A stretch of DNA of 64,000 nucleotides from a plasmid, in sequence record NZ_AP019754.1; one strand, given 5' to 3'. Below are positions 17,483 to 55,339 of the stretch, one piece after another. Positions within the stretch are counted from its first letter, which is position 1; every line of letters begins with the position of its first letter. The notes below the pieces were generated by a model, which was not told the origin of the DNA, ran no database searches, and saw only the letters and a list, made by a program, of their open reading frames with translations. The position numbers and the translations under genes were made by a program.

Positions 17483-17812
17483 TTATCGGGGCTTGCTGCC
17501 ATTCTCTCTGGCCTGGTGCTCCAGGCATCTTATAAAATTCTCTATTATCTGCACAGAGTAAGTTATGGCCAGCAACTCTGCCGTGAGCTGGACATCCATA
17601 CGCATCAGCGTCTCCATGACGCCGGGCTTGCTGAGGACCGGCTTCATATTTTTTACCCGGTCCATCAGATGTGTCCAGTTATTGATAAAGGTGTCCGGGT
17701 CAGCATAGGTTCCATCCCTCAGTTGCGTGTAAATCGCGTCAACATCCGCTTTCATTAGCCTGACGGCCTTAATCAGTCTTTCCTCGTAAGTGGGCTGGTT
17801 TTCATCAGACAC
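17483..17812 (-). CDS. Hypothetical small protein (about 109 aa), translationally coupled to the 3' end of the upstream MCP gene
   Basis: The ORF starts with GTG at 17812, 8 nt inside the MCP stop region, with a GGTGGA 8 nt upstream. There are no recognisable motifs. The terminator follows about 100 nt downstream. Confidence 0.45.
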   Translation of the reverse strand: MSDENQPTYEERLIKAVRLMKADVDAIYTQLRDGTYADPDTFINNWTHLMDRVKNMKPVLSKPGVMETLMRMDVQLTAELLAITYSVQIIENFIRCLEHQARENGSKPR

Positions 17813-19349
17813 GGAACGTTTCCACCATACATCTCAGCGCATGCGCCTGCTCAGACAGTGACTGCGAAGCCGAGGATGACTCCTCGACCAGCGCCGCGTT
17901 GTTCTGCGTCACGCCGTCCATCTGACTCACGGCAACACTCACCTGCGAAATGCCCTGCATCTGCTCTGCGGACGCCAGGGAGATGTTATCCATCGCCTCA
18001 GCGAGCTCACCGACCAGGCCGACCACCTTCTGGATACTCTGTCCGGTCGATGAAGCTACGCCGACGCCGCTTTCAATCTGATCGACGGCCTGCTCAATCA
18101 GCGTCTTGATGTCCTTTGCGGCCGTCGCGCTGCGCTGTGCCAGCGTACGCACCTCTCCGGCTACCACGGCAAATCCGCGTCCCTCTTCACCTGCGCGGGC
18201 CGCTTCCACCGCGGCGTTCAGTGCCAGAATGTTGGTCTGGAACGCGATGCCCTCAATCACTGACGTGATGTCGCGGACTTTTGCGGCACTCGCTGAGATG
18301 TCCTGCATGGTCACTGACATGCGCTGTACGTCCGACCCGCCTGCGTGAGCCAGCTGCGCGGTCCCACGGGCGGACTCTGCTGTCTGCTGCGCACTGGCCG
18401 CGTTGCTCTTCACCGTGGCGGTCAGCTGCTCCATGCTGGCGGCCGTTTCCTGCAGCGCAGCCGCCTGCTGTTCGGTGCGGGATGACAGTTCAGTATTACC
18501 CTGCGCGATTTCGTCCGAGGCGAGGGCCACAGAGGCAGAGGTCTCTTTAATCTGCGACACCAGGCCGCGCAGGTTGGCCTGCATGCTGTCAAGCGACGCC
18601 AGCAGGCTGGTCGTGTCGTTGCGGCGAAGCACGACCGGCGATGTGAGGTCGCCGGCCGCAATGGTGGCGGCCAGTGCCTGCGCCTGGGCAGGCTCACCGC
18701 CCAGCTGGCGCATTAGTACACGGACAACCAATACACAGGCCCCGACACTGATGAAAATGGATGCACCGGCCAGAAGGATCAGGATGAGAGATGAGCGTGA
18801 AGTTGAAGTGCTGTTCTCCTTCACCTCAGCAAAGCTTGTCTTCTGCTGTATCCCTGTCACAACCTGCAAATCGCTGAGCATTTTATCCTGCACGGGCTGG
18901 ACCTCTTTTGTCAGACACTCAAAGAAGTCTTTATCGCGATTGGCCAGGCCAAGCTGACTGGCCTTTGCAAAAATGGCAAAAAAAGAGGCCTCTGTATCGG
19001 TCAGTCTCTTGAAAGCGTTCCGTCCTGCCGGAAGAGAATCGATCTTCAGCAAGTCACCAAGAGCCTGGCGGTTAGCGCTATATTGCGCCTGAGTTTTCTG
19101 CATGCGCTCTGCTACGGGTTTCATTGCCACAGGATCGCTCAGCAGCCCAAGCGTTCTGACGTCTATGGACATCTCTCTCAGTTCACCGAGCATGTCCTGC
19201 GCAATTTGGTACTTTTTCATTTTGATGTTTACGATCCTGTCCATTCCTTCCCGGGCTTTATAGAGCGCATTCAGCGCAGTACCGGTGCAGATGATGAACA
19301 GGAAGATAAGCAGGCCGAAACCTGCAGCAAGGCGAGTCGATATTTTCAT
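17805..19349 (-). CDS. Methyl-accepting chemotaxis protein (4HB periplasmic sensor, HAMP, MA signalling domain)
   Basis: 514 aa with two TM segments. It contains the highly conserved MCP signalling core [43 protein letters not shown]. It does not end in the NWETF-type pentapeptide. Confidence 0.9.
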   Translation of the reverse strand: MKISTRLAAGFGLLIFLFIICTGTALNALYKAREGMDRIVNIKMKKYQIAQDMLGELREMSIDVRTLGLLSDPVAMKPVAERMQKTQAQYSANRQALGDLLKIDSLPAGRNAFKRLTDTEASFFAIFAKASQLGLANRDKDFFECLTKEVQPVQDKMLSDLQVVTGIQQKTSFAEVKENSTSTSRSSLILILLAGASIFISVGACVLVVRVLMRQLGGEPAQAQALAATIAAGDLTSPVVLRRNDTTSLLASLDSMQANLRGLVSQIKETSASVALASDEIAQGNTELSSRTEQQAAALQETAASMEQLTATVKSNAASAQQTAESARGTAQLAHAGGSDVQRMSVTMQDISASAAKVRDITSVIEGIAFQTNILALNAAVEAARAGEEGRGFAVVAGEVRTLAQRSATAAKDIKTLIEQAVDQIESGVGVASSTGQSIQKVVGLVGELAEAMDNISLASAEQMQGISQVSVAVSQMDGVTQNNAALVEESSSASQSLSEQAHALRCMVETFRV

Positions 19350-19896
19350 GTCTTTTCTCGTTATATAGGGCGTTCTGGTGTTGGTTAATCTTTGCCGGAC
19401 GTCAAGAGCAGTCCGACCGGATTAATCCTAGATGGGTTTTTGCATTTAGTGCTTATTTCGCCCCAGTATTACTGAGAATAATCTGAAAAAAATTGTTTCT
19501 GCGTACTTCAATTGCCTGCGCAACGGCTTTGCCTGACGTCGGAATCTGTCATCTCAGTCACGTCCAGCCCCACTGATGGGGTTGCCTTCAGAAAACCCTT
19601 ATGATGAGAAATCCGTCACGCACAATAAGTTGATTGAGAGACTAAACATCCTTTTCCAACAAACATCTCTCCCCGATCGAAAAGCCGCGATAATCCGTGC
19701 CATTACTCTACTTACCTGAGTCCGTGACCAGACAATCCCGGCTTGACGTGAAATGAATGCCCCTTTTTAGGAGGCGCAGGCCATCTGGGCTGATTGACAG
19801 GTGGTCAGTAAAAAGAGGCCTGTTGCATGGTCAACATGACACATCGTCAGTATGTCAAATTGATTCCAGTGATAAATGATCGACCTGCGTCACAAT

Positions 19897-19923
19897 TAAA
19901 GAAAGCAACTATCGTGACGATAA
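19897..19923 (+). promoter_or_regulatory. Sigma-28 (FliA) class-3 flagellar promoter for the flagellin gene
   Basis: TAAAGAAA-N11-GACGATAA compared with the consensus TAAAGTTT-N11-GCCGATAA. It sits about 40 nt upstream of the flagellin ATG. Confidence 0.6.
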
Positions 19924-19965
19924 CGTTAGGGCGTGATTTGCACGCTTTGACTACAGGGAGTCAAC

Positions 19966-20901
19966 ATGGCCGTTATCAACACAAATACGCTGTCACTGGT
20001 TACGCAGAATAACCTGACAAAGTCACAGTCTTCACTAGGCACGGCGATTGAGCGCCTGTCTTCCGGTCTGCGCATCAACAGTGCAAAAGATGATGCAGCC
20101 GGTGAGGCCATCGCTAACCGTTTCACCTCCAACATCAACGGGATGACCGTTGCCGCCCGCAATGCCAACGACGGTATTTCGCTGTCGCAGACCGCCGAGG
20201 GCGCGCTGACTGAAATTAACAATAATCTGCAGCGAGTTCGTGACCTGACCGTTCAGGCGCAGAACAGCTCTAACTCAGCCTCGGATGTCGACTCGATTCA
20301 GGCTGAAGTTAACCAGCGCATGCAGGAAATCGACCGCGTTACGAAACAGACTGATTTCAACGGTATCAAAGTGCTGAACACCGGCTCCGGCAGCACCACC
20401 TACAATTTCCAGGTGGGCGCAAAAGACGGCGAAACTATTGGTATTGCGCTGAGCTCAAGCGACGGTTTTGACCTGGCTGCAGCGGGCAACGCTTCTACAG
20501 GCACCACTCAGAATACCAGTTCTACGACAGGCCAGACGGTCAACGGCAATGCCCGCACCACGTCAGCCATCGGCTTCGACGTGCTGAAAGGGGCTGTCAC
20601 CGGCGGTTCAGGCGGCACAGCGTCAGGTACCACGCCACTGGCCGACATTGATAAAGCCATCAAAGCGGTCGATAACCAGCGCAGCCTGCTGGGTGCCTCG
20701 CAAAACCGTTTCGAGTCCACCATCAGCAACCTGAACAATACCGTGACAAACCTGACCGCGGCCCGCAGCCGTATTCAGGATGCGGATTACGCGACGGAAG
20801 TGTCGAACATGTCCCGCGCGCAGATCCTGCAGCAGGCGGGCTCTTCTGTACTGGCCCAGGCCAACCAGGTGCCACAGACCATGCTGTCACTGCTCCGCTA
20901 A
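19966..20901 (+). CDS. fliC: Flagellin
   Basis: The N-terminus [53 protein letters not shown] and the C-terminus ...[17 protein letters not shown] are the conserved D0/D1 flagellin termini. 311 aa with a short variable region. Confidence 0.95.
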
Positions 20902-20909
20902 TAAACGCT

Positions 20910-20950
20910 GAGGAACTGGATGCTGTCTGATGCAGTTCCTCACGATTTCG
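20910..20950 (+). terminator. Probable intrinsic terminator after flagellin
   Basis: A 9-bp perfect stem GAGGAACUG/CAGUUCCUC (20910-20918 and 20933-20941) is followed by ACGAUUUCGUC. Confidence 0.5.
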
Positions 20951-21182
20951 TCCCGCTCTGTAACCAGAAGCGGGCAAAACCCTGATTCTCGTCGCGGTGG
21001 AAATGTCAGGTTGAACATGGGATGTGGGGCGGAGTAGCACTCTGAACACGCCATCAAGATGCTTAAGCAGGGCTATGGACTGATTTAAGAACACCATCTT
21101 GCCAAACGCCCGTATTATCGGCTCCCGGCACGAAGCCGTTTTCTTTACTGTTTCATTTTCGAGTGTTAACCGAGGAAAGATA

Positions 21183-22847
21183 ATGAACAATATTAAAATC
21201 GGCGTCCGTCTCGGTGCCGGATTTGGCTTTATCCTGCTTCTTCTCATCGTTATTACCCTGGCCGGTTTAATGCGTATCGACTCACTGGGCGACACCGTGG
21301 ATAAACTGGCCGGCGATCGTTTTGACAAGGCTACCGCTGCCAGTAATCTTCGCTTTTACGTTACTGATATGAGTCGTATGGTTCGCAGCATCGCGCTTGT
21401 CGACGATCCGGCGCAAAAAGAAAGACTGAAACAAAATTATGAGCAGGCCCGCACCCGGCTTGAAACGGCTTTCAACAAAGTCGATCACATACTGCACGCT
21501 CCCAGAAGTCGCGAGCTGATTGACGTCATGAAAAAAGCAGGGAAACAGTATCTATCTTATTCTGAGCAGGCGGTAAAACTGGGTATGGAAGGCAAGCGGG
21601 ATGAGGTGACGCAACTACTCACCGGGCCGGCTTATCAGGCTCAGGACGAATACACAACGGCTATCACGGACCTCGCCAACTTCCAGGGGGAGCAGATGAA
21701 AACCGCGGGAGCTAAAGCCGCGTCAGAGCAGCGCAACGCCGTAACGTTACTCGTTTCACTCAGCCTGGCTGCCATTGTACTGGCAGCAACGCTCGCCTGG
21801 TTTATTACCCGCAGTATCGTCAGGCCCGTCAATATCGCACTTGAAGCGGCGGTAAGGGTTGCTGAAGGTGATCTCACTGCAGAGGTGCCGGTGAGCGGAC
21901 GGGACGAAACCGGGAAACTGCTTGAAGCTATTCGTGGCATGCAGCATTCCCTGGTGCAAACCGTGAGTGCCGTTCGGGCGAATGCGGAAAGCGTTGCCGC
22001 AGCAAGCCTTCAGATAGCTCAGGGAAACACCGATCTGTCACAGCGCACTGAAGAACAAGCCAGCGCGCTGGAACAGACCGCTGCCACGATGGGTGAACTG
22101 GGTGTCACGGTCAGGAATAACGCAGATAATGCCAGCCAGGCCGCCACGCTGGCCGTTACGGTACGTGAGGTTGCCCGGCAGGGTAATGACATCACTTCAG
22201 ATATCACCGATACCATGAAGGGCATAGGCGAAAGTTCAGGGCGCATTGCGGATATCACTTCAGTGATTGACAGCATCGCTTTCCAGACCAACATTCTGGC
22301 GCTCAATGCCGCCGTCGAAGCTGCCCGCGCGGGTGAGCAGGGTCGCGGCTTTGCCGTTGTCGCTGGTGAAGTTCGTTCACTGGCGCAGCGCAGTGCGACT
22401 GCTGCGGGTGAGATTCGTCAGCTCATTGAGGCCAACGCTCAGCGCGTCAGTGAAGGCTCAACGCTGGTAGCGCGTTCTGCTGGCACGATGTCTGCCGTTG
22501 TTTCTTCGGTGGGCCAACTCACTGACAGGGTAGAGGAAATTACCGCCGCTACTGCTGAACAGGCGCGCGGCATTGAACAGGTCAGCATAGCCGTGACAGA
22601 AATAGATGACGTCACGCAGCAGAATGCTTCACTTGTGGAAGAGTCTGCCTCTGCGGCAGCAAGCCTGCGTGAACAGGCCGATCTGCTAATGCAGTCTGTA
22701 TCCGTTTTTACACTTTCAGATCATTCATCCTCCGCCGTTAAAACAGCACTTGTTGCGCCCGTAACGGTTACCGCATCCCCGACGACGCATGACAATTCCA
22801 TGCGATCAAAAGAGACAACGCTGGAAGAAAACTGGACAACATTCTGA
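21183..22847 (+). CDS. Methyl-accepting chemotaxis protein (4HB sensor, HAMP, MA domain; C-terminal NWTTF pentapeptide)
   Basis: The ATG at 21183 has GAGGAAAG upstream (the ORF track opens earlier at 21099). It has a signal-anchor TM, the conserved MCP signalling core, and ends in ...EENWTTF (a CheR/CheB tether-like pentapeptide). About 554 aa. Confidence 0.9.
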
Positions 22848-23681: not shown

Positions 23682-24827
23682 ATGATGAATAAAACGATTC
23701 TGGCGCTAGCCGCCGTTGCAAGTGCTTCGGCCATTGTGCCGCTGATGGCTCAGGCATCTTACGCGTATGTGGGAACCTATAATCCCAATGGCGAAGGGGT
23801 TTATCGATTTATCCTCAATGCGCAGGGTGAACTGTCGGGAAAAACATTGGTGAGTCAACTGCCCAACCAGGCACAGATGGTGGCGTCAGCGGATGGTAAA
23901 CATCTTTATGTGGCGAGTGAGACCGAGAAAGGTAGCATCACCGCTTATCAGATTGGTACGGACGGTTCGCTCACGGCATTAAATCAGGTCGACACGCAAG
24001 GCAAAGGACCGGTGTACCTGTCCCTGACACCCGATCAGCGTTACCTGATGGTCGCAAATTATGTCAGCGGCAGTATTACAGTGTTTGCGGTAACGCCAGA
24101 AGGCAAGCTGAGTGAGGCTGTCGATCATCATCAGGACAGCGGCCCGGCTGGCGCAGGCAAACCGGCCGCAGCGGTAGACGGCAGCTTTGCCATCAGCGAT
24201 CACAATGGTCCGCATGCACATATGGTCGCCAGCGATCCCACGGGCCAGTTTGTTTACTCGACGGATTTGGGGCTGGACCGCATTTACCAATACCACCTGA
24301 ATAAAGACGGTACGCTGACGCCCGGCAAACCCGCATGGATAAACGCCTCGTCTGCCGGTGCAGGCCCCCGCCATTTCGTTCTTAGCGCTGAGGGTCATGC
24401 GCTCTGGTTAGTGAATGAAGAAGCCTCCACGCTCACACATTACCTCATTAATCCGCAAAGCGGTGCTTTGCAGGAAAAGGCCACGGTTTCTACGCTGCCT
24501 TCCGGTTATAAAGGCACCAGTTTTGCAGCCGGGTTAGTCATTGATAAGGGCGGGAAAAATCTTTACGTCGCCAACCGTCTGCATGACAGCATTGCGCACT
24601 TTGAGGTCAATGCTAACGGCACACTGACGCATAAAGATGATGTGTGGACGCGCGGGGATTACCCCCGAACGCTGACATTATCCCCTGATGGCAGCATGAT
24701 TTACGTGATGAATCAGCGTAGCGATAACATCACCAGCTTCAGGGTGGATAAAGCGAGTGGTGCCATCAGCTTTACCGGGAACTATGTTGCCGTAGGCGCG
24801 CCTTCACAGATGGTTATTGTTCCCTGA
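23682..24827 (+). CDS. Lactonase family protein (7-bladed beta-propeller; 6-phosphogluconolactonase / YbhE-like), secreted
   Basis: Signal peptide (MMNKTILALAAVASASAIVPLMAQA) followed by the YVGTYNP...LYVASE pattern of the YbhE/Lactonase fold. 381 aa. Confidence 0.8.
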   Translation: MMNKTILALAAVASASAIVPLMAQASYAYVGTYNPNGEGVYRFILNAQGELSGKTLVSQLPNQAQMVASADGKHLYVASETEKGSITAYQIGTDGSLTALNQVDTQGKGPVYLSLTPDQRYLMVANYVSGSITVFAVTPEGKLSEAVDHHQDSGPAGAGKPAAAVDGSFAISDHNGPHAHMVASDPTGQFVYSTDLGLDRIYQYHLNKDGTLTPGKPAWINASSAGAGPRHFVLSAEGHALWLVNEEASTLTHYLINPQSGALQEKATVSTLPSGYKGTSFAAGLVIDKGGKNLYVANRLHDSIAHFEVNANGTLTHKDDVWTRGDYPRTLTLSPDGSMIYVMNQRSDNITSFRVDKASGAISFTGNYVAVGAPSQMVIVP

Positions 24828-24995
24828 AACATTGATGCGGATAACATGCACGTCACACTGTGGTGCGTGTTACCGACGCAGCGTGCAGGTGCACGAGAAG
24901 GTCAGTCTCGCGCACCTGCCCGTTCAAGATCACTAACGGGCATGATCGATAAGCACTCAGGCCCAGCGATTATCGCTGCCAGTGCTAACGCAAAA

Positions 24996-27900
24996 TCAGG
25001 TGTTATCCTCCACAATCACCGCAACCCGCTGTCCGGCGCGCACGGCACTGCCTGGCTGTACGTTAACCTGCTGGATGATCCCATCGCAGGGTGCCAGCAA
25101 CGGAATCTCCATTTTCATGGATTCCAGTACCACCAGAACATCCCCCGCCTGAACCCGACTTCCCACCGTGGTTTGCACTTGCCAAAGGTTGCCGGAAACC
25201 GGGCTTTCGACACCCTGCTCGCCCTGCTGTAGTGGTGCATCACCGCCCTCTTCTGCCACGTTCTCCTGGCTGTCGAAATGGGCCTGACCACTGGCGATCC
25301 AGCGATCGCGTTCCGCATTGAACGCCTGTTGCTGGTGGTCACGAAACGCCGCGATGCTTTGCGCCTCATGAGCGAGAAACTGCTGATAATCACTCAACCG
25401 CAGCGTACTGGGCTCAATGCGCAGCGGATAACGCCCCAGCGGGAAATCGCGGCGGATTTGCACCAGTTCCTCGGCGGATACAGGGTAGAACCGCAGTTGA
25501 TCAAAGAAGCGCAGCAGCCAGGGTTTCCCCGCAAAATCAGCAACCTCTCGATAGCGATTCCACATCTGAAGCGTGCGCCCCACAAACTGATAGCCGCCAG
25601 GTCCTTCCATGCCGTAAACGCAGAGGTAAGCGCCGCCGATACCCACCGAGTTCTCTGCCGTCCAGGTGCGCGCCGGGTTGTATTTTGTGGTGACCAGGCG
25701 ATGGCGCGGATCCAGCGGTGTCGCAACCGGCGCCCCCAGATAGACATCGCCCAGCCCCATAACCAGATAGCTGGCCTCAAACACCGTCTCCCAGACCGCC
25801 TGTTCGTCAGGCAGATCGTTAATGCGGCGAATGAATTCAAGGTTACTGGGGCACCACGGTGCATCAGGGCGTACCGTCGTCATGTACTTTTCAATCGCCT
25901 GGCGACAGGCGGGATCGTCCCAGGAAAGCGGCAGATGTACTACGCGAGTTGGCACCTGCAGATCATCACTCAGGCAAACCCTGAGCCACTCGCCGCGTAC
26001 CCAGTCCAGCAGCGCGTCATGGGTGAGGATTTCAGGCTGAAAATGGATCTGCAACGAACGAATCCCGGGCGTGATATCAATCACCCCGTCTTTTGCATGC
26101 GCTTCCAGCGCCTGCATCAGGGCATGAATGCGAAAACGCAGAACCAGATCCAGCTCCGGCTCCCCGGCTTCGAGTAGCAGATGCGTATCGCCAGAAAGTC
26201 GCGCGACCAGGCGCTTATCGGCCTCACCGCAGGTCATCACGATCGGCGAGGTCAGCGGCGCAGGTTGCCAGGCTGTCGCCTGGCCACAGAGCGTTGCCAG
26301 CTCCTGGCCTCGCGCTTTAGCCAACTGGCGCGCGGTGGTTAAATCCACCGAGGTAAAGCGCACTTTATCACCGGCTTTCAACTGCCCTAACTGCCAGAGA
26401 TCGGCTTCGATGACTGTGACCGGACAAACGAATCCCCCGAGGCTGGGTCCATCCGGGCCCAGAATCACCGGCATATCGCCGGTAAAATCAACCGCACCTA
26501 CCGCGTACGGATTGTCGTGAATGTTTGACGGATGCAGTCCGGCTTCGCCCCCGCTGTCTCGGCTCCAGATGGGCTTGGGCCCAATCAGGCGGACGCCCGT
26601 GCGGCTGGAGTTAAAATGCACTTCCCATTCTGTGGCAAAAAAAGTGGCGATATAGTCCGGCGCGAAGAACTCCGGCGCACCGTGTGGACCATAAATTACC
26701 CGTAGGGTGCGGATCTGCGGGAGATCCGTGCGCAATGCCTCAGGAAGTGCCACGCCAGCTTCCGTTGCTGCCTGTGGGGCCAGGTGCAGCACATCGCCGC
26801 TACGCAGTGCGCGTCCGGCGTGGCCGCCAAACTGGCCAAGCGTAAAGGTGCTTTTACTGCCTAAATACGTTGGCACCTGAATGCCGCCGCTCAGGCAGAG
26901 ATAGCTTCGCACGCCCGCCCCACTCACAGCACCCAGCTTTAACGTCGCCCCGGCGGGAATGGTAAAAACACAATCCATCGGCACGGGCTGGCCATCCAGG
27001 GTAGCGCTCAGTGGTGCACCGCAGATGACGGCCTGGATGGCGGTATTGAATTTCAGAGTGGGTCCGGTGAGGGCCATTTCCAGTGCGGCTTCCCCCTCGT
27101 CATTGCCCAGCAGCCGATTGCCTGAACGCAGGGCGCGGTCGTCCATCGGCCCCGATGGCGGTACGCCGACCGCCCAGTAGCCCAGACGGCCCGGATAATC
27201 CTGCACGCTGGTTTGCGTACCGGCGCCTAGCACCTCAACCGTCGCTGCCTGATAGCTCAGCTGTTCCAGACAACGGGTCCAGGGTTCTCCCTGAACAAAG
27301 GGCGCAAACGCTAAAATTTGCTGCAGATAGAGGCGGTTGGTTTCAACACCGTATAAACGCGTTTCTGCCAGCGCCTGCGCCAGTGTGGCAATGGCCTCCG
27401 GGCGGCTGGGCCGCCAGGCGATCGTTTTCGCCAGCAGCGGATCAAAAAAGGGCGGCACTTCGCAACCGGCTTCAATCCAGTGATCAATGCGCAGGCGAGC
27501 ATCCTGTTGGTCGGGAAAGGCAACGTCTGTCAGCAGGCCCGGTGAAGGCTGAAACTGCCGTCCCGGATCTTCCGCATAAATGCGTGCCTGGATAGCATGG
27601 CCTTGTGGCGCAAGCCCGGCAGCCAGCTCGCGCAGGGGCGGCAAGGTGTCCGCAGCCAGTTCAATCATCCATTTCACCAGGTCAACGCCCCAGACCTGTT
27701 CTGTTACGCCATGCTCGACCTGAAGGCGAGTGTTGACCTCCAGGAAGTAAAATTGTTGGTTCAGGCTGTCATAGACAAACTCCACGGTGCCCGCGCTGCG
27801 ATAGTTCACTGCTTTACCCAGCGCAACTGCCGCCTCGCAGAGCGCCTGTGCCATGCCTTCAGGCAAATTGGGGGCAGGTGTTTCTTCGATGACCTTCTGG

Positions 27901-28601
27901 TTACGCCGCTGCACCGAGCAGTCACGCACGCCCAGCGCGATAACGTCTCCTTGCCCGTCACCAAAGATCTGCACCTCAAGATGACGTGCGCGTTCGATAT
28001 AGTTCTCGAGAAACACGCCGGCATCACTAAAGTTGTTCTGCCCCAGCCGCTGCACGGTATCAAACGCTTCCGTCAGTTCATGCGAATCGCGACAAACGCG
28101 CATGCCAATCCCGCCGCCACCCGCCGTACTTTTCAGCATCACCGGATAACCAACGGTCTCGGCGACGCGGCAGGCTTCGGCGGCATCGGCCAGTAACTCG
28201 CTGCCTTCCAGCAAGGGCACACCTTCAGCTTTCGCCAGAGCACGGGCCGTGTGCTTCAGACCAAAAGTCCGCAACTGCTGTGGCGTTGGGCCAACAAAAA
28301 TCAGCCCTGCGGCCTCGCAGGCCTCAGCGAACCCGGCGTTTTCAGAGAGAAAACCGTAGCCCGGGTGAATCGCCTGTGCACCGCTTTGCTGCGCTGCGGC
28401 AATAATTTTTTCAGCGGCCAGATACGTTTGTGCCGCCGGGCCGTCGCCAAGGGACAACGCTTCATCGGCATCACGAATATGCAGGCTGCCCAGATCGGCC
28501 TCGGCATAGACAGCCACCCCCTTGACCTGCATGGCGCGCAGGGTGCGTAAGATGCGGCAGGCGATCGCACCGCGGTTAGCAATCAGTAAGGTATCAAACA
28601 T
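24996..28601 (-). CDS. Urea carboxylase family enzyme; given the ykkC riboswitch context, probably guanidine carboxylase. It carries biotin carboxylase, CT (KipI/KipA-like) and BCCP domains.
   Basis: 1201 aa. The N-terminal biotin carboxylase starts MFDTLLIANRGAIACRIL, and the C-terminus has the biotinyl-lysine motif ESMKMEIPL. The middle region is allophanate-hydrolase-subunit-like (cyclophilin-fold). Confidence 0.9.
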   Translation of the reverse strand: MFDTLLIANRGAIACRILRTLRAMQVKGVAVYAEADLGSLHIRDADEALSLGDGPAAQTYLAAEKIIAAAQQSGAQAIHPGYGFLSENAGFAEACEAAGLIFVGPTPQQLRTFGLKHTARALAKAEGVPLLEGSELLADAAEACRVAETVGYPVMLKSTAGGGGIGMRVCRDSHELTEAFDTVQRLGQNNFSDAGVFLENYIERARHLEVQIFGDGQGDVIALGVRDCSVQRRNQKVIEETPAPNLPEGMAQALCEAAVALGKAVNYRSAGTVEFVYDSLNQQFYFLEVNTRLQVEHGVTEQVWGVDLVKWMIELAADTLPPLRELAAGLAPQGHAIQARIYAEDPGRQFQPSPGLLTDVAFPDQQDARLRIDHWIEAGCEVPPFFDPLLAKTIAWRPSRPEAIATLAQALAETRLYGVETNRLYLQQILAFAPFVQGEPWTRCLEQLSYQAATVEVLGAGTQTSVQDYPGRLGYWAVGVPPSGPMDDRALRSGNRLLGNDEGEAALEMALTGPTLKFNTAIQAVICGAPLSATLDGQPVPMDCVFTIPAGATLKLGAVSGAGVRSYLCLSGGIQVPTYLGSKSTFTLGQFGGHAGRALRSGDVLHLAPQAATEAGVALPEALRTDLPQIRTLRVIYGPHGAPEFFAPDYIATFFATEWEVHFNSSRTGVRLIGPKPIWSRDSGGEAGLHPSNIHDNPYAVGAVDFTGDMPVILGPDGPSLGGFVCPVTVIEADLWQLGQLKAGDKVRFTSVDLTTARQLAKARGQELATLCGQATAWQPAPLTSPIVMTCGEADKRLVARLSGDTHLLLEAGEPELDLVLRFRIHALMQALEAHAKDGVIDITPGIRSLQIHFQPEILTHDALLDWVRGEWLRVCLSDDLQVPTRVVHLPLSWDDPACRQAIEKYMTTVRPDAPWCPSNLEFIRRINDLPDEQAVWETVFEASYLVMGLGDVYLGAPVATPLDPRHRLVTTKYNPARTWTAENSVGIGGAYLCVYGMEGPGGYQFVGRTLQMWNRYREVADFAGKPWLLRFFDQLRFYPVSAEELVQIRRDFPLGRYPLRIEPSTLRLSDYQQFLAHEAQSIAAFRDHQQQAFNAERDRWIASGQAHFDSQENVAEEGGDAPLQQGEQGVESPVSGNLWQVQTTVGSRVQAGDVLVVLESMKMEIPLLAPCDGIIQQVNVQPGSAVRAGQRVAVIVEDNT

Positions 28602-28712
28602 AAGCGGAACTCTCAGGAAAGCGGGTCGTCCCGCAGAAAGTCGACATGTCCCCTGGGGCCGTCCCCGGGGCTTCTCCTTTTCAGGCGTGCGTATTGTTTA
28701 GTCGCACCAGGC

Positions 28713-29348
28713 TCAGTTCCATACCAATACCTCGGCGGGCGTGGGATTCCAGCCGTTACAGGGGTTATTCAGCTGCGGACAGTTTGAGATTAAGACCGCC
28801 GCATTACACTCGGCGCGCAGTTCAACATATTTGCCGGCGGCGGAAATACCGTCTTCAAAGGTCAGTCCACCCTGCGGAGTGACGGGAACGTTCATAAAAA
28901 AGTTGATGTTGGCGCCGATATCGCGTTTATGCAGGCGACCGTCATGCAGGCAGGCACAAAGAAAATTATCCCGGCAGCTGTGCATATAGCGCTTGTCGTG
29001 AGCATAACGTACCGTGTTACTTTCCTGCGCGCAGGCACCGCCCAACGTATCGTGGCGGCCACAGGTATCGGCGACAATGGTCAGCAGCGGATTGCCCATA
29101 TTCGAGTAAAGTACGCTGCCGGTGGTCAGGTAAGCATTACCCTGACGGCGCAGCGTACGCTGGGGATCGTAACGCTCGCGCGGATTATCTGCGTTGTAGA
29201 ACAGCGTATCGATCGCCTGATTCCCTTCCAGGTCGAGCAGACGCAATGTTTGCCCTTGTTTGACCTCAAACAGCCAGGGTTCGCCCGCCGGAATCACATG
29301 ACGGTAAACCGCATCCTCTGGGCGGCGGTCGCTGGAAATAATCATCAT
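28713..29348 (-). CDS. DUF1989 protein: urea-carboxylase-associated family 2, a carboxyguanidine deiminase subunit-like protein
   Basis: The start ATG at 29348 ([14 protein letters not shown]...) has a GGAG 6 nt upstream and lies just after the stop of the preceding DUF1989 gene. It is a paralog of the upstream gene (shared ...GNPLL...ADTCGRHD / ...[16 protein letters not shown] blocks). Confidence 0.75.
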
Positions 29349-29358
29349 CGCTGACTCC

Positions 29359-30087
29359 TTACAGGGCAAAAAGTTGAGTGTTCTGTATTGCGCGCTGATT
29401 TTCATCGCGGATGAACAGCGCTTCGGTGGTAGCCTGTGCGTCATCGGCCTGATACCAGCTCAGCTGGATGGGACGCGGTGCATAGTCAGGGGCAGGATCC
29501 ATTGGATGGGGGAGCGCGGTCAGGACGATCAGCACGTCCATTGGGGCAAACAGCTCAACAACATCCCCTGCGCGGCTATGTTCGGTATCGAAGCGGAAGC
29601 GGCCATCTTCATCGACGGTGACTTTGCTAAAGAAGTTAACGACCATGAGCAGATCTTCAAGACCCAAATCCCATTTGCCCATCTCGACCAGCAGATTATC
29701 GACTCCATTGCGGTAAAACCCATTCCGCAGCTCCTGATAGCGCCCTGCGCCATATTTTTCGCGCGTTTCCGCCGCGTTAAGTACGCCACCAAACGGGTCG
29801 TGCCAGCCACAACTGTCCGCCACGATCCCGGCGAGTACGCGGCCCATATCGGAATAAAAACAGTGGCCGGTAGTGAGCCGGGCCGTATGCTGGCCCTTCA
29901 GCGTATCCGGTAGATTAAGGCGTTCACTTTTCTCATGCGGATTGAGCATCATCATGCTGACATTCGCGCCGCCATCAATATCGGTCAGGCGCAGGATGTG
30001 CCCTTTGCGCAGAATGAATGAGGTGTGCGCCCCGCCGGGAAGCCGCTCTTCGCGCAGGCTGGGCGCTGAGTGAAAACGTGCCGTCAT
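29359..30087 (-). CDS. DUF1989 protein: urea-carboxylase-associated family 1, a carboxyguanidine deiminase subunit-like protein
   Basis: 242 aa, paralogous to the downstream DUF1989 gene. It overlaps the ATPase gene stop by 4 nt. Confidence 0.75.
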
Positions 30088-30866
30088 TGCTGTCTCCTTA
30101 ATGCATAAACGTTGTCTTTACTGTCTGTCATCAGCTGTGCCATTCGCGCCTCATTCAGCGGAATGTCATAGGTGATACGCGCGCCCCAGGCATGAGGGGC
30201 TTGGGGATCGTGGCGGACTTTGTCAAATACCAGTAGCCGTGTCCCCAGGTTGAAGCCTTCAGTAAGATCGTGGGTGACCATAAAGACCGTCATTCGGGTT
30301 TCACTCCACAGTTGAAGCAGCAGCGCGTGCATGTCTTTGCGGATACCGGGATCCAGTGCGCCAAAGGGCTCATCCAACAACAGCACTCGCGGTTGCATGA
30401 TAAAAGCCTGGGCAATTGCCAGCCTTTGCTGCATTCCGCCGGAGAGCTGTGCCGGATATTTATCCAGCGCATTTCCCAGCCCTACTTTGTCCAGCATCTG
30501 TCGTGCCTGCTGCCGGGCCGCGCGTTTTCGGGCGCCGAACAGGCGACCCGACAAGGGCGAAGCAGGCAGTTCGAGCCCTATCGCGACGTTATCGAGTACA
30601 TTGAGATGGGGAAACACGGAATAGCGTTGAAACACGACGCCGCGGCTGCGGTCGGGTTCTGTCGCCAGTGCCTTACCATCCAGGGTGATCTCTCCCCGGG
30701 TGGGTTTTTCCTGCCCCAGCAGCAGGCGCAAAAACGTCGACTTCCCGCAGCCCGATGCACCGACCATAGAGCAGAACTCGCCCGCCTTAACCTGCAAATT
30801 GATGCGTTCCAGCACCACGTGGTCGCCGTACTCCTGCCAGATATTGTTGATACTGATAAAACTCAT
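30084..30866 (-). CDS. ABC transporter ATP-binding protein, NitT/TauT family
   Basis: The ATG at 30866 forms an ATGA overlap with the permease stop. Walker A GASGCGKST, signature LSGGMQQRLAIAQA, Walker B LLLDEPFGALD. Confidence 0.85.
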   Translation of the reverse strand: MSFISINNIWQEYGDHVVLERINLQVKAGEFCSMVGASGCGKSTFLRLLLGQEKPTRGEITLDGKALATEPDRSRGVVFQRYSVFPHLNVLDNVAIGLELPASPLSGRLFGARKRAARQQARQMLDKVGLGNALDKYPAQLSGGMQQRLAIAQAFIMQPRVLLLDEPFGALDPGIRKDMHALLLQLWSETRMTVFMVTHDLTEGFNLGTRLLVFDKVRHDPQAPHAWGARITYDIPLNEARMAQLMTDSKDNVYALRRQQ

Positions 30867-31678
30867 TCCCGGCCTCCTTCCGCCCATGGGAAACAGGCGT
30901 TGTGCAGCTTGCGCAGGCCCAGATCCATCAGCCAGGCCAGCAGCGTGATCCAGATGACATAGGGGATAATCACATCCATCGCCATGTAGCGACGCACCAG
31001 GAAAATGCGATAGCCCAGCCCGGCGGTCGCCGAAATCGCTTCGGAGGAAATTAAAAACAGCCAGGCCGATCCCAGAAGCAGCCGTACCGAGGTGATAAGC
31101 CGTGATAACAGCTGCGGCAGCACGACCCGCAGCACGACCGTCCAGCTATTGGCTCCCAGGGTTTGCGCTTTGATTAACAGTTCCGCCGGAATTTCCCGTG
31201 CCCGCTGTTCAAGATCGCGTGCCAGCATCGGCGTAATGCCAATGACGATGAGCATGACCTTCGACAGCTCATCCAGGCCGAAAACAATAAACAGCACGGG
31301 CAGAATCGCCAGCGGCGGCACCATTGAGACAACCGTCATCAGGGGTGACAGTGCGGCGCGGGACATCGGAAAAACGCCCGCGGCAATGCCGAGGCACAGA
31401 CCAATCAGCGAGGAGAGCGCCAGCCCCATGAGCAGACGGCTCAGGCTGATAAACGTATCGGCCCACAGCAGGTATTCACCACTGCGCTTATCTGGCGTGA
31501 AGGCCATCCGATCAATCGCCTCAATCATCTGCGACAGTCCGGGCAGCAGTTTGTCCTGCGGATTGGCCTCCAGCCGCACCGCTGATCCGATAAACCAGGC
31601 GGCGATGATCAGCACGAAGGGCAACAGCATTAGCGTCAGGCGCATGCCCTGGCGGGGATAGCGGTTGATGTAGCGCAT
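30863..31678 (-). CDS. ABC transporter permease, NitT/TauT family
   Basis: 271 aa with 6-7 TM segments and an EAA-like loop. Confidence 0.85.
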   Translation of the reverse strand: MRYINRYPRQGMRLTLMLLPFVLIIAAWFIGSAVRLEANPQDKLLPGLSQMIEAIDRMAFTPDKRSGEYLLWADTFISLSRLLMGLALSSLIGLCLGIAAGVFPMSRAALSPLMTVVSMVPPLAILPVLFIVFGLDELSKVMLIVIGITPMLARDLEQRAREIPAELLIKAQTLGANSWTVVLRVVLPQLLSRLITSVRLLLGSAWLFLISSEAISATAGLGYRIFLVRRYMAMDVIIPYVIWITLLAWLMDLGLRKLHNACFPWAEGGRE

Positions 31679-31702
31679 GACATGAACTCCCGTGCTCAGT
31701 GG

Positions 31703-32761
31703 TTACAACTTGCCCGCAGCGGCCAGCTTAAGATAGCTGTCGTCAAAGCGCAGTTTGCTGTTAGCACTATCGCCAACGGTGACGTTGCCCGGGAATGTCA
31801 TGCCGATAAAATCAGCGCTCTGTGCGCCCTGACCCAGCAGACCTTTGTCAAACGAGAAGTTCGCCACGCGTTGCATGGTCTTTGGCAGATCAGGCGAAGA
31901 AATAAAGGCCAATGTCTCAGCAGGCGTCCAGAACAGATGCGTTGTTTTAAGCTGAGCCTGATAGCCCGCGAGGTCGGTACCGGAATCTGCCGCCATTGCA
32001 CTCAGCGCTTGTTTATCACCCGCCTGCATTTTTGCCATCATTTCAAACCACGCACCGGTCAGCGCTTTGCCGAGGGCGGGGTTATCTTTCAGCGTTTGGG
32101 TGTTCACGACCATCATGTCGATGAGTTCGCCGGGCACTTGGGTGGAGCTAAACACTTCGGTGGTTTGTGGCGTCTTTTTGATGACGGACAACTGCGGGTT
32201 CCAGGCTACCGCTGCCCGCACATTGCTGGTGCCAAAGGCCGAGACGATATCCGCATCGGAGGTATTAACCACTTTCACATCTTTTTCCTGCAGCCCGGCT
32301 TTTTCCAGTCCGCGAACCAGGAGATAGTGCGATACCGAGAGTTCGGGCAGATAAACCGACATACCTTTCAGATCGCTGAGTTTTTTATTCATCCCTTTTA
32401 GCACGACGCCGTCGTTGCCATCGGAATAGCTGCCGGTGATGAGTGCTGTCGAATCTACCCCACCTGCCGCCGGGATAGTCAGCGCATCCATGTTGGTCAT
32501 GGTGCAGCCGTCAAACTGCCCTGCCGTGTACTGGTTGATGGATTCGATGTAGTCGTTGAGTTGAACAATATTGATTTTGATGCCGTATTTGCTGGCCCAT
32601 TTATCAATAATTTTTTCATTGCTGATGGTGCCCCAGGGCATCCAGCCCGCATAGATCGTCCAGCAGATGTTGAATTCTTTTTTAACCGTGGCGAAGGAAG
32701 AAAAGCTGATCAGCAAGGTGAGTGACAGCAAAAGCGTGCGGATGAACGGCGTTGTTTTCAT
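31703..32761 (-). CDS. ABC transporter substrate-binding protein (NitT/TauT-type; putative urea/guanidine-related SBP)
   Basis: Signal peptide (MKTTPFIRTLLLSLTLLISFSSFA). 352 aa. It is the first gene after the riboswitch leader. Confidence 0.85.
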   Translation of the reverse strand: MKTTPFIRTLLLSLTLLISFSSFATVKKEFNICWTIYAGWMPWGTISNEKIIDKWASKYGIKINIVQLNDYIESINQYTAGQFDGCTMTNMDALTIPAAGGVDSTALITGSYSDGNDGVVLKGMNKKLSDLKGMSVYLPELSVSHYLLVRGLEKAGLQEKDVKVVNTSDADIVSAFGTSNVRAAVAWNPQLSVIKKTPQTTEVFSSTQVPGELIDMMVVNTQTLKDNPALGKALTGAWFEMMAKMQAGDKQALSAMAADSGTDLAGYQAQLKTTHLFWTPAETLAFISSPDLPKTMQRVANFSFDKGLLGQGAQSADFIGMTFPGNVTVGDSANSKLRFDDSYLKLAAAGKL

Positions 32762-32780
32762 GGTTAACCTCTGGTTGGCA

Positions 32781-32822
32781 CAAAAAAGGAGCAGCGCGAC
32801 ACCTGACGGTGCTGCTGTCTCC
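32781..32822 (-). terminator. Riboswitch expression platform: an intrinsic terminator overlapping the 3' end of the aptamer
   Basis: On the minus strand the stem AGCAGCAC...GCGCUGCU (GC-rich) is followed by CC-UUUUUU. The 5' arm overlaps the aptamer 3' GGGAG-ACAGCAGC. Confidence 0.5.
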
Positions 32823-32912
32823 CGGGCTTTTGTCCCGCCGTGTAACCTCTCAGAGGTCGCCAGCTCTCGGACCAGACATTCACCTGCGTGAACCGGAACC
32901 CTAGCCAGCTAT
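32815..32912 (-). ncRNA. ykkC: Guanidine-I riboswitch (ykkC-yxkD leader) in the 5' UTR of the ABC / DUF1989 / carboxylase operon
   Basis: The minus-strand RNA reads ...GCUGGCUAGGGUUCCGG...GGUCCGAGAGCUGGC...CCUCUGAGAGG...ACGGCGGGACAAAAGCCCGGGAG. It contains the signature ykkC blocks UAGGGUUCCG, GGUCCGAGAG and ACGGCGGGACAAAAGCCCGGGAG. Confidence 0.75.
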
Positions 32913-33497
32913 TTAATTCAGATTATGTGTTGCGCTGCTTACCGATCAGGTTTTTGCAATTGACGTGCCAGAATTAATAACAATAAAAATCAGTGATTTA
33001 GCATTATCCCTGGTGACGAAGCACCAGAATGATGAGTGACCGAGGGGCATTGCACACAATCAGTGCTGACTGGAACACGAAATATGCTGTGCAGTCCTTA
33101 CATCATAAGCATCAGCGCGGTTTTCTGGGCGACGTTGCAGCGGTAGTGTCCATCCTGACGAGGCGTAACGGTATAACGCCTGACGCAATACCGCTGATGG
33201 CGCGAGGTGCTTTAATCCTGTAGATGTCGCGCGGCCAAAGGGGAGCCACTATTACGCGATAGCCATCCTCGTAGCTTAAGGGAACGCACACGCTTTCAAC
33301 GGTGACCATCCGCACTTCTCTTGTGTTGACCCTCCATTAGATGCCCGCACGCGGGTATGGCAGTGGCGTGCTACACAGAGACTGGCTTTGCGTTCTGCCG
33401 GTTCTTTAACCCACCATAAACGTCGCGCGTTTTTTGCAGCAGGGTCATCCGGCCTGCACTACAGTTAACTGACTCAGTAACCAGCAAAAACATAACC

Positions 33498-49024: not shown

Positions 49025-50689
49025 TCAGAACTGCTCCCAGTTTTGATCCTGTCCGCCAACCACTGCGGTCTGCGGTTTCTTAAAAACCGGCGACGATACC
49101 GCTGCGGCGCGGTTTTGCTCCCGATTATTACTGGATAACTGACCCGCAAGCGTAATCGTGAAGGCACCCACTAAATGACCCAGCGTGGAGGCCTGATCTA
49201 TCAGAGAACGCGATGCTGCGGAGGCCTGCTCAACCAGTGCGGCGTTTTGCTGTGTCGCACCGTCCATCTGATTTACGGCCTGATGGACCTGGCTGATGCC
49301 TTGCGACTGTTCTCCGGCGGCTACGGATATTTCATCCACCAGATCAGTGACCTGCCGCACCGCATCATTCATGCGTGACATGTTAGAGCCTACCCCTTCC
49401 GCCTGCTCAGAACCGGCCTCGACAAAGCCCATTGATGACTCAATCAACTCCTTGATTTCACGAGCTGAAGAGGATGAGCGCTGTGCAAGATTACGAACCT
49501 CACCCGCCACCACCGCAAATCCCCGCCCCTGCTCACCAGCACGTGCAGCCTCAACGGCGGCATTCAGCGCCAGGATGTTGGTCTGGAAGGCAATCCCTTC
49601 AATGAGTGCAATGATGTCAGTGATTTTGGCTGAGCTTGCCCTGATGTCACTCATAGTGGACAGTAGTGTGCGGACACGACCAGCACTGTCTTCTGAGATA
49701 TCCCGGGCGTTTTTCGCCAACTGACTGGCAAGACGCGTATTTTCAGCGGTCTGACGGACGGTTTCGCTAAGCTCGGACATACTCGCTGCTGTCTGCTCCA
49801 GGGAGGCCGCCTGCTCTTCCGTACGGGAGGACAGGTCTTCATTACCCGCCGAAATCTGTGCAGAAGCAGAGCTTACCGACTGAGCTGAAGCTTCCACCTT
49901 AGACAGTGAATCTGAAACATTCTCAATCAGATGGTTGAAGGCTCTTGCCGTCAGGCCGATTTCATCATGACGTGACTCATCAACCCTGAGAGTCAGGTCG
50001 AGTTTTTCACTGGCCTCTTCCATGGTCTGACGCATGCCGTTCAACTGGCGGCGTATAGACATGATGGTTTTGATCGTGAAAAAACCCAATACAAGGATGA
50101 CGGCGCCAGAGCCGGCAATCAGTCCCCATAGAGTCGTATAGTAGATATGGGTATTGGTTTCATCCAGTTGAGTGCCGATATCAATATTTATCTGCAGTTG
50201 CTTACGGTAACTGCTTGTAAGCGTGCGAATGGCTTCACTCAGATTTTTACTGCTTTCATCTGAGTTCGCCGTCGATGATGACTGGGGAATCCTGTTGATC
50301 TGCAGGAAAGGCAGCAGCCTGTCATGAATGTTTTTAATCATGACGAACGCCTCTTTGGTCAGCCGCAGATCTTCGTCGCTGGATATATCATTCTCAAGAT
50401 AATGCTGATTGAGGGTATTAAGGCGCTCAACCGTTTTGTTCATTTCTGATTCAATTTGCCCCTGCCTGGCAGGATCTTTTGCGCCCTGATAGTCGTATAG
50501 CTTAATGAGAAGTTCATTGTTCTCATCAATCAGTACGTTTAAGTCGATGATCGAAGGTATGGCGTTAATCTGAACGTAGTGAAAGCGATACTGGAAGCCA
50601 GTAACGACCACGATGGAAATAATAACCATAGAAACGAGAGAAGCTGAGAGCAGAGAAAACGTAAGATAAAGTCGCTGTGAAATTGTCAT
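49025..50689 (-). CDS. Methyl-accepting chemotaxis protein (periplasmic 4HB-type sensor, HAMP, MA domain; C-terminal NWEQF pentapeptide)
   Basis: 554 aa with two TM segments and the conserved signalling core ([43 protein letters not shown]). It ends in ...QDQNWEQF. Confidence 0.9.
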
Positions 50690-53533: not shown

Positions 53534-55075
53534 CTAACCCCTTGCCCCGTTTCGCCCCTCGTGTTTGGCACGATAGAGCGCTTCATCCGCCCGTTTAATT
53601 AATCGTTCCGCCCTTTCTGGCCCTTCCCCTGCCACCGTTGTTGCCACGCCGGCACTCAGCGTGACGCACCCGGTTTCCAGCCCTGTCGAGCTGTGCGGTA
53701 TCGCTAACTTCCTGACGGCCTCAACCACGCTTGAGGCTATTTTTAACGCATCCGCGGCGCAGGTGTCGGCTAACACGATGGCAAATTCTTCTCCGCCATA
53801 GCGTGCGGCGATATCGATGCGGCGCTGGGCAAACGTCTTCAGTAAGCGTCCTACTTGTTGTAAACAGGCGTCACCCGCGACATGGCCGTAGGTATCGTTG
53901 TAGCGTTTAAAATAATCGATATCGAAAAGGATTAATGATACCGGCCCACCGCTACTGCGGCCGTGCAGCAGGCTTTTTATCAGAAAGTGGTCAAAGTACC
54001 GGCGGTTAGCCAGCCCCGTGAGCCCATCGCCGTTTGCCAGATTCTCCAGTGAATGATTCGCTTCGGTCAGTTCATCCCTGAGATGGGTTAATTCAATTTG
54101 ATAGCGTAAGCTACGTTTGGCCTCATGCCGTATCAACATCCACAGCAGAATAATCGCCATCAGAAGCACCAGGCTTAATACTACGCCCTGAACCCGGCTT
54201 TCGGCCCAGCTAATCAAAAGCCCCTCTTTGTCGAATCCTGCAGCGACAACCAAGGGGTAACGGCTTGAACTGGCGAAACCAAAAATGCGGGTTACGCCGT
54301 CAACCTTCGCTTTCCACTGGCCGCTGCCGCGTTCGGCATTGGCTAACAGCTGGTGAAAAAGCGGGCTGGAGGAGAGATTTTTACCGATGTAGCTGTTCGA
54401 CAAAGGACGAGCATAGAGCACAGTGCTGTCTGCCAGCATCAGCGCCAGTAAGTCCTTGGGACCAATAACAAAATAATCGTAGTAGTGACGAAAGTAATCG
54501 ATGCTCACCGTGGCAAGGAGTACACCACGGAATCCCTGGTAGTTATCACTGACGCGCAGCGAAACAGGAATAACGTAGCGGCCCGAACTGCGGCTTCGTA
54601 ATGCAGGCCCCACGTGCAGGCTGTTGCGTGGATTGTTGCGATGATAGCTGAAATACTCCCGGTCGGCGTTATTTCCTGAAAACGAGTGCATTAACGAACT
54701 GGCGACCCATCGCCCCTGCGCATCGTAATAGAAAATACCCTCCAGCTGCGGCAGGCGGCTCTGTAACGTCCGCATGATGTCGTTGAGGGTTGAGACATCT
54801 CCGCCCGTCTCTGCCTGAGACTCGATTTCACGCTGGACTTCACGCAGCGACAGTTCCGTTTGCAGAAAGGTATCTTCGGCCTGACGGGCCTGAGCCAAAG
54901 AAAGATCAATGGCGCGTTCTTCAGTGATACGAACCGTTCTTTGCCAGTCCTGGTAAAGCGTCCAGACATTGATCACAATAACGCCAATCGTCAATAAACT
55001 TCCCGCCAGGGTAATGCTTCTGAGCAGTGGTGAAAGGCGCATCATCGCCGCATCTTTTTTTCGACGTAATTCCAT
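53534..55075 (-). CDS. Sensor diguanylate cyclase (two TM segments, periplasmic sensor domain, cytoplasmic GGDEF)
   Basis: GGEEF motif (RYGGEEFAIVL). A periplasmic domain of about 250 aa lies between the TM segments. The start is uncertain (Met codons at 55114, 55075 and 55045). Confidence 0.8.
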   Translation of the reverse strand: MELRRKKDAAMMRLSPLLRSITLAGSLLTIGVIVINVWTLYQDWQRTVRITEERAIDLSLAQARQAEDTFLQTELSLREVQREIESQAETGGDVSTLNDIMRTLQSRLPQLEGIFYYDAQGRWVASSLMHSFSGNNADREYFSYHRNNPRNSLHVGPALRSRSSGRYVIPVSLRVSDNYQGFRGVLLATVSIDYFRHYYDYFVIGPKDLLALMLADSTVLYARPLSNSYIGKNLSSSPLFHQLLANAERGSGQWKAKVDGVTRIFGFASSSRYPLVVAAGFDKEGLLISWAESRVQGVVLSLVLLMAIILLWMLIRHEAKRSLRYQIELTHLRDELTEANHSLENLANGDGLTGLANRRYFDHFLIKSLLHGRSSGGPVSLILFDIDYFKRYNDTYGHVAGDACLQQVGRLLKTFAQRRIDIAARYGGEEFAIVLADTCAADALKIASSVVEAVRKLAIPHSSTGLETGCVTLSAGVATTVAGEGPERAERLIKRADEALYRAKHEGRNGARG

Positions 55076-55339
55076 GCTGGTTAACCCTTCTCTCGCCACG
55101 AGATAATGCAACATATCAGAAACAACGTGTTATCAATAACATCCTGACAGGCCATTTATATCTGCTGTTTTCAGTTTAGATTAAGACAGGAACGCCAGCC
55201 TCGCCTTGCGCCTGTTCAGAGTACAGGCAGCAGGCTCTGATAGCAGGCTGATGGTGCCAGCCTCACCGGTCGGGCGTATCGGGGAACGCGCAGATGTCGC
55301 GGCAGCCTCCACGTCATCCATGACATGGAGAAGGAGAGG

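Follow-up and report, generated by a model that had tools for sequence, protein, structure and literature searches.

Organization of the locus

The operon described here lies on the minus strand of a 64-kb stretch of plasmid DNA (record NZ_AP019754.1), the whole of which is referred to as the window, and it is carried by a large LPP-1-type plasmid of Pantoea ananatis. It combines two guanidine riboswitches of different classes with genes for an ABC importer, a pair of DUF1989 proteins and a biotin-dependent carboxylase, and it lacks a linked gene for allophanate hydrolase (AH). We consider it likely that P. ananatis carries here its version of a guanidine-assimilation operon known from Proteobacteria, with AH acting in trans. 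Read in the direction of the minus strand, the features are as follows:

32817–32915, minus strand: Guanidine-I (ykkC subtype 1) aptamer (RF00442; 93.0 bits against a gathering score of 63, E = 1.6e-15, model positions 1–107 of 107)
32782–32823, minus strand: predicted Guanidine-I expression platform, an intrinsic-terminator hairpin followed by U6 (folding)
31703–32761, minus strand: substrate-binding protein (SBP) of the ABC importer for guanidine, with a urea annotation (TIGR03427, 538.7 bits against 333.9; NMT1 Pfam domain)
30863–31678, minus strand: ABC importer permease (PF00528; gene call)
30084–30866, minus strand: ATPase of the ABC importer (PF00005; gene calls on identical assemblies give 260 aa)
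29359–30087, minus strand: DUF1989 protein of the UAAP1 type, predicted carboxyguanidine deiminase subunit (TIGR03425, 310.2 bits against 205.95; PF09347)
28713–29348, minus strand: DUF1989 protein of the UAAP2 type, predicted second carboxyguanidine deiminase subunit (TIGR03424, 330.6 bits against 284.7)
28621–28670, minus strand: Guanidine-II (mini-ykkC) aptamer (RF01068, 40.4 bits against a gathering score of 32)
28602–28641, minus strand: predicted translational platform of Guanidine-II (minimum-free-energy folds)
24996–28601, minus strand: predicted biotin-dependent guanidine carboxylase, annotated as urea carboxylase, 1201 aa (TIGR02712, 1823.7 bits against 1303.85)

Gene starts were refined from the gene calls on identical assemblies; the UAAP2-type gene probably begins at 29348 (211 aa) and not at 29444, the start of a 243-aa open reading frame. 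The permease and ATPase genes adjoin that of the SBP. ABC transporters are listed in the literature among the standard ykkC-associated genes, an association for which the SBP family TIGR03427 is named. The DUF1989 genes are adjacent paralogues beside the carboxylase gene, one from each subfamily, in agreement with a preliminary description of this DNA that had recognized two genes resembling those of the deiminase CgdAB. The same description regarded it as rare for a complete SBP-permease-ATPase importer to be preceded by a riboswitch. This is not the case, since the arrangement is the standard layout in most of the 80 species-representative loci that made up our comparison sample, and reviews describe the same.

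Two guanidine riboswitches of different classes

The whole window was scanned against Rfam using cmscan, with the curated gathering scores as cut-offs. Two matches scored above these cut-offs, each of them on the minus strand, and a looser scan of 24–34 kb revealed no RNA match beyond Guanidine-I and Guanidine-II. The first corresponds to the ykkC leader proposed earlier for this strand; the match is significant and spans the full length of the model, and the three signature blocks on which the proposal had been based all fall inside the RF00442 alignment. The 5′ arm of the terminator hairpin (GGGAG...) is the 3′ end of the aptamer, so that the two elements overlap at aptamer positions 101–105. 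Folding of 32775–32835 gave −27.9 kcal/mol (z = −3.5), with the hairpin followed by UUUUUU; a simple terminator scanner had passed over this structure because of its large loop. A platform competing with the aptamer in this manner would be the usual terminator-based ON switch, as predicted from the fold. Guanidine-I was found upstream in 72 of the 80 loci.

Overlooked in the preliminary description, the second aptamer occupies part of the 111 nt that separate the UAAP2-type gene from that of the carboxylase and ends 19 nt before the carboxylase AUG. It consists of two hairpins, CCCCGGGG-ACGG-CCCCAGGGG and GCGGG-ACGA-CCCGC, each with an ACGR tetraloop closed by a G-C pair. Paired GGACGRCC hairpins occur at the same position in 63/80 loci, which make up essentially the whole of the Proteobacteria sampled, and are missing from the loci of Paenibacillaceae/Bacillaceae and Verrucomicrobia. 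The formal covariation count was made on hairpin 1, where six of the eight stem pairs have changed on both sides and 89% of the cells are paired, as opposed to 27–50% when the partners were slid. The covariation score of 0.633 compares with 0.169 in shuffles, none of the 500 shuffles scoring as high. The Guanidine-II element is real, and its presence as a second riboswitch of a different class in the operon corrects the earlier view of the locus. In the ligand-free fold, the linker ACUUUCU located 5′ of hairpin 2 pairs with GAGAGUU, a Shine-Dalgarno-like sequence situated 8 nt before the AUG. This predicted pairing would fit the published model in which, according to a review, guanidine-II acts as a translational ON switch; we use it as evidence for Pantoea only, as the folds of other genera gave genus-specific patterns.

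Several loci of the comparison sample depart from this arrangement. The sole Pantoea locus in which neither a regular expression nor nhmmer detected Guanidine-I is that of Candidatus Pantoea gossypiicola (L007, upstream of 5948), where Guanidine-II hairpins are present. Three Pseudomonas/Ectopseudomonas loci contain three separate guanidine-I aptamers in about 6 kb (L019, 1281–7230; L023, 1326–7251; L035, 999–7026), which in L035 precede the SBP gene, the permease-ATPase pair and the deiminase-carboxylase block, respectively. All three of these loci have Guanidine-II hairpins before the carboxylase gene and are devoid of AH, and the next gene encodes a dCache-GGDEF diguanylate cyclase. In two Paenibacillus loci, an extra guanidine-I aptamer is found about 170 nt downstream of the AH gene (L072, 15516–15612; L073, 15517–15613) and presumably controls a further set of downstream genes. 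Two Herbaspirillum loci possess two guanidine-I aptamers each, on opposite strands and about 700 nt apart (L034, 5875–5973 on the minus and 6692–6792 on the plus strand; L048, 5881–5979 on the minus and 6681–6781 on the plus strand), implying two divergent guanidine-controlled transcription units; a linked AH is lacking in both.

Signature residues of the carboxylase

Guanidine carboxylases have been defined by Asp residues at the positions corresponding to 1584 and 1330 of the Kluyveromyces lactis enzyme, at which urea carboxylases differ (Palatinszky et al., 2024; PMC11410670); a review gives the discriminating residue as Asp versus Asn. In the alignment to the K. lactis structure 3VA7, D705 of the P. 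ananatis protein stands opposite N1330 and D952 opposite D1584. Both are thus Asp, as they are in all 80 of the collected homologues. The protein has the full-length architecture of biotin carboxylase, carboxyltransferase and biotin carboxyl carrier protein domains, with the biotinylation motif SMKME near its C terminus. These residues support the guanidine-type assignment made in the preliminary description, which had suggested the alignment.

The same domain order is found in the K. lactis DUR1,2 protein (PDB 3VA7, 5I8I), to which the P. ananatis carboxylase aligns end to end (1075 bits to 3VA7). Unlike the latter, with Asp705, the yeast enzyme has Asn at position 1330, is fused to AH, acts on urea and is accompanied by neither a riboswitch nor DUF1989 partners.

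Absence of a linked allophanate hydrolase

A complete cluster would comprise the guanidine carboxylase (GC), CgdAB and AH, the last recognized by an Amidase domain (PF01425) plus the AH C-terminal domain. The preliminary description had stated that no amidase-signature gene exists in the operon, and our searches agree. A tblastn search of the operon and the 64-kb window with five AH proteins (E ≤ 1e-5) returned nothing, and a domain scan detected no Amidase domain in any open reading frame of the window of at least 400 aa (ten, plus the carboxylase and a methyl-accepting chemotaxis protein). Moreover, AH was absent within 10 kb of the carboxylase gene in five other assemblies encoding an identical carboxylase (L001–L005), all of which have the same layout, and in the locus of P. 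ananatis LMG 2665 (L006). The sequence following the carboxylase gene contains two features:

23682–24827, plus strand: convergent 7-bladed lactonase with a signal-peptide-like N terminus, MMNKTILALAAVASASAIVPLMAQA
24885–24919, strand not assigned: 14-bp GC-rich hairpin (fold of 24825–25005)

The convergent, probably secreted lactonase is present as described earlier. The gap of 168 nt that separates it from the carboxylase gene has no room for an AH gene and holds the strong hairpin alone. This hairpin is followed by a U-run on neither strand; it likely marks the end of the operon, for which its predicted fold suggests a role as terminator, possibly a bidirectional one.

Within the comparison sample, 45 of 80 loci have a linked AH gene, which encodes 460–620 aa and starts within a few bases of the carboxylase stop codon. 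The remaining 35 are without AH-like sequence within 10 kb on either side of the carboxylase gene. They include all seven Pantoea loci, every sampled locus of Pseudescherichia, Kluyvera and Pectobacterium, and several from Pseudomonas, Hylemonella, Herbaspirillum and Halopseudomonas. Carboxylases from loci with and without AH are interleaved: that of P. ananatis is 87.9% identical to the protein from its nearest AH-containing neighbour, a Klebsiella locus, and 87.8% identical to that of the nearest AH-less Pantoea, and an AH-less Kluyvera carboxylase shares 90% identity with an AH-containing relative. This pattern indicates repeated loss or gain of AH while the carboxylase itself did not diverge. 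A conserved substitute hydrolase was sought downstream of the carboxylase gene in the AH-less loci and none was found; the genes at this place are mutually unrelated and encode a lactonase, LysR, EAL/HDOD, MscS, MatE, GGDEF, citrate synthase or LppC protein.

In Caballeronia grimmiae (L051, 13600–13803), the best AH match directly after the carboxylase gene is no more than a 68-residue segment corresponding to AH residues 358–425, which suggests an AH gene in the course of decay or deletion. A crude open reading frame call labels a second AH-like frame on the opposite strand further downstream in the same locus.

Where an AH might be encoded is suggested by a survey of 56 bacterial genomes (Strope et al., 2011; PMC3073912). 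For P. ananatis LMG 20103 (NC_013956) it reported a single long urea amidolyase (GI 291616199), about 1800 aa in length, that contributes the sole AH-type amidase domain of the genome, together with one short carboxylase and no urease. In the same survey, three gammaproteobacteria, Pantoea sp. At-9b, Pectobacterium carotovorum PC1 and Cellvibrio japonicus, each have two carboxylases, only one of which adjoins an amidase. The preliminary description had proposed that the hydrolase is encoded elsewhere or that this lineage processes allophanate differently. Of these, the former accords with the survey. The lack of AH, seen in 35/80 loci, is not peculiar to the lineage. The most economical interpretation is that a separate urea-catabolic gene probably supplies AH in trans.

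Relatives of the P. ananatis operon

The carboxylase is 100% identical to the copy on plasmid pPANA1 of P. ananatis LMG 2665, and over a 9.9-kb region the identity to the four large P. ananatis plasmids listed is 96.5–99.3%. The operon also occurs, in related copies, on 71 Pantoea plasmid records, under the annotations 'urea carboxylase', 'UAAP1/2' and 'putative urea ABC transporter'; nothing similar was detected in the E. coli genomes searched. The carboxylases of Klebsiella sp. SMAG_U5015 (L009) and Klebsiella indica (L056) are 87–88% identical to that of P. ananatis, about as close as those of other Pantoea species, yet these two loci have a linked AH, which shares 83–85% identity with AH proteins that bear the names of other Klebsiella species. 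In these two strains, the locus may be mosaic or may have been transferred between genera.

Promoter and putative upstream sites

Two features precede the Guanidine-I aptamer:

32955–32970, minus strand: sigma-54 (−24/−12) type promoter, TGGCACGTCAATTGCA (pattern TGGCAC-N5-TTGCW)
33020–33066, minus strand: putative enhancer, two NtrC-like half-palindromes (read from the sequence, pattern level)

The element TGGCACGTCAATTGCA has a perfect −24/−12 arrangement and is positioned about 40 nt upstream of the aptamer. It is the single match to the pattern in 64 kb, where 0.15 would be expected; at least one match occurred in 14 of 100 shuffles, and the count in the window, taken alone, is weak. A relaxed form, YGGYAY-N5-YTGCW with a variable spacer, lies 54–67 nt upstream of the aptamer in the Enterobacterales loci in which guanidine-I was found, with the exception of L044. 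Further upstream of the promoter are GCACT-N5-TGTGCA at 33051–33066 and TCATC-N5-GGTGCT at 33020–33035, which we tentatively regard as an enhancer; related motifs, for example GCACCACCGCAGTGCAC, occupy the corresponding position in loci of Kluyvera, Enterobacter, Klebsiella and other Pantoea. Together, these patterns suggest, as a prediction, that control by nitrogen limitation is layered over guanidine sensing. A search of the available literature for guanidine-I linked with sigma-54 or NtrC found nothing.

Comparison with known guanidine systems

In Raoultella, Erwinia and Klebsiella, a guanidine operon with two riboswitches has already been described (Sinn et al., 2021), and a 2025 review (PMC12186494) summarizes its layout: the importer and carboxyguanidine deaminase genes are under guanidine-I, and the carboxylase and AH genes directly downstream are under guanidine-II. 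The P. ananatis operon shows guanidine-I, importer, deiminase, guanidine-II and carboxylase in the same order, but ends at the carboxylase where the enterobacterial one continues with AH. The internal guanidine-II is the published hallmark of the enterobacterial version. From what is cited in PMC11410670 of the Pseudomonas syringae pv. tomato DC3000 pathway (Schneider et al., 2020), which consists of GC, CgdAB and AH, the two systems share the same enzyme families, an ABC importer, both Asp residues and a heteromeric DUF1989 pair; they differ in that AH is encoded in the DC3000 cluster and is absent from the P. ananatis operon. The operon of the Synechocystis guanidinase GdmH similarly places guanidine-I over an ABC guanidine importer and a guanidine-degrading enzyme, although GdmH performs a Ni-dependent hydrolysis to urea rather than an ATP-dependent carboxylation, and guanidine-II is absent from that operon.

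The P. ananatis operon is hence an ordinary member of a published system, in which the riboswitches, the enzymes and the two-riboswitch layout are all known. Only the lack of a linked AH sets it apart, and this is a common condition across lineages that the 2011 survey had anticipated for P. ananatis. Since 35 of the 80 species sampled dispense with AH at the locus, calls of pathway completeness that are based on the cluster only will under-report guanidine users.

Proposed mechanism and alternative explanations

Transcription would most likely start at the sigma-54 promoter, with a presumed tie to nitrogen limitation. When guanidine is lacking, the 3′ end of guanidine-I would be drawn into the terminator hairpin followed by U6; when guanidine is present, read-through into the genes for the ABC importer and the two DUF1989 carboxyguanidine deiminase subunits would be expected. 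Guanidine-II most likely gates translation of the ATP-consuming carboxylase, in that binding of guanidine by its two ACGR loops would free the ribosome-binding site. The predicted chemistry converts guanidine to carboxyguanidine by the carboxylase and carboxyguanidine to allophanate and ammonium by the deiminase, at which point the operon stops. Hydrolysis of allophanate would then most likely take place in trans, through the amidase (AH) domain of the long-form urea amidolyase that has been reported for P. ananatis as a separate protein.

Several points weigh against this scheme. The urea amidolyase of P. ananatis rests on the single 2011 survey, a second paper containing a figure-legend mention only. 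It is not on the LPP-1 plasmid, since a search with the carboxyltransferase domain located one carboxylase-like place per P. ananatis plasmid. The 120 closest homologues (at least 70% identity) of the linked Klebsiella indica AH include none that is named from Pantoea, so that any Pantoea AH must be divergent. An AH acting in trans would not be induced by guanidine, and its simultaneous expression is an assumption. With regard to the regulatory steps, the linker-to-Shine-Dalgarno pairing is clear in the Pantoea folds and variable across other genera, and the NtrC-like sites are weak pattern matches.

A broader interpretation, which we regard as rather doubtful, is that AH-less lineages use the importer, CgdAB and GC as a self-sufficient unit that dispenses with a dedicated, co-regulated AH. 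In P. ananatis, the pathway would then either end by cross-feeding a fused urea amidolyase of the fungal type or be truncated, with release of urea or allophanate, and the operon would function as a three-input gate of nitrogen status (sigma-54/NtrC), transcription (guanidine-I) and translation of the ATP-consuming step (guanidine-II). Neither recurrent AH loss nor the sigma-54 layer was found described in the literature examined.

Less probable still is a truncated pathway devoid of AH activity altogether, with allophanate decarboxylating spontaneously to urea or being excreted; one of the three nitrogens would be gained, and the operon would mainly serve to detoxify imported or endogenous guanidine. 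The absence of AH from the locus, the 64-kb window and 35 of the 80 homologous loci, with no conserved gene in its place, agrees with this explanation, as do the reported lack of urease in P. ananatis and the listing in PMC3073912 of carboxylase-bearing bacteria without any amidase, such as Nitrosomonas europaea and Sorangium. However, an importer of the high-affinity ABC type and a sigma-54-type promoter fit nitrogen scavenging and not detoxification, for which the known systems in the literature use Gdx exporters. An AH domain has also been reported in the P. ananatis genome (PMC3073912), and according to one review allophanate is comparatively stable.

It is highly improbable that AH has been replaced by a non-orthologous hydrolase encoded nearby, such as the convergent periplasmic lactonase. 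This enzyme is indeed encoded directly after the carboxylase, but it lies on the opposite strand, has a probable signal peptide and belongs to a 6-phosphogluconolactonase-like propeller family. Nor is it conserved: a LysR regulator occupies that place in other Pantoea loci, and the assortment of EAL/HDOD, MscS, MatE, GGDEF, citrate synthase or LppC genes in other AH-less genera leaves no gene common to the AH-less loci.

We give equally little credence to a true urea carboxylase in an operon for urea uptake, as the RefSeq/NCBIfam names 'urea carboxylase' and 'putative urea ABC transporter SBP' would have it, given that two independent guanidine-specific riboswitch classes are placed to control the operon, that the position of K. 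lactis residue 1330 holds Asp and not Asn, that the DUF1989 pair is needed for the guanidine route only, and that the literature reassigns such riboswitch-linked enzymes to guanidine. The RefSeq terms 'urea carboxylase', 'urea ABC transporter' and 'urea amidolyase associated protein' at this locus should accordingly be read as guanidine functions.

Other genes of the plasmid stretch

Outside the operon, the stretch is rich in genes for signalling and motility (5330–7387, 17805–22847, 49025–50689 and 53534–55114), which encode three methyl-accepting chemotaxis proteins, a flagellin, a PAS-GGDEF-EAL protein and a dCache-GGDEF protein.

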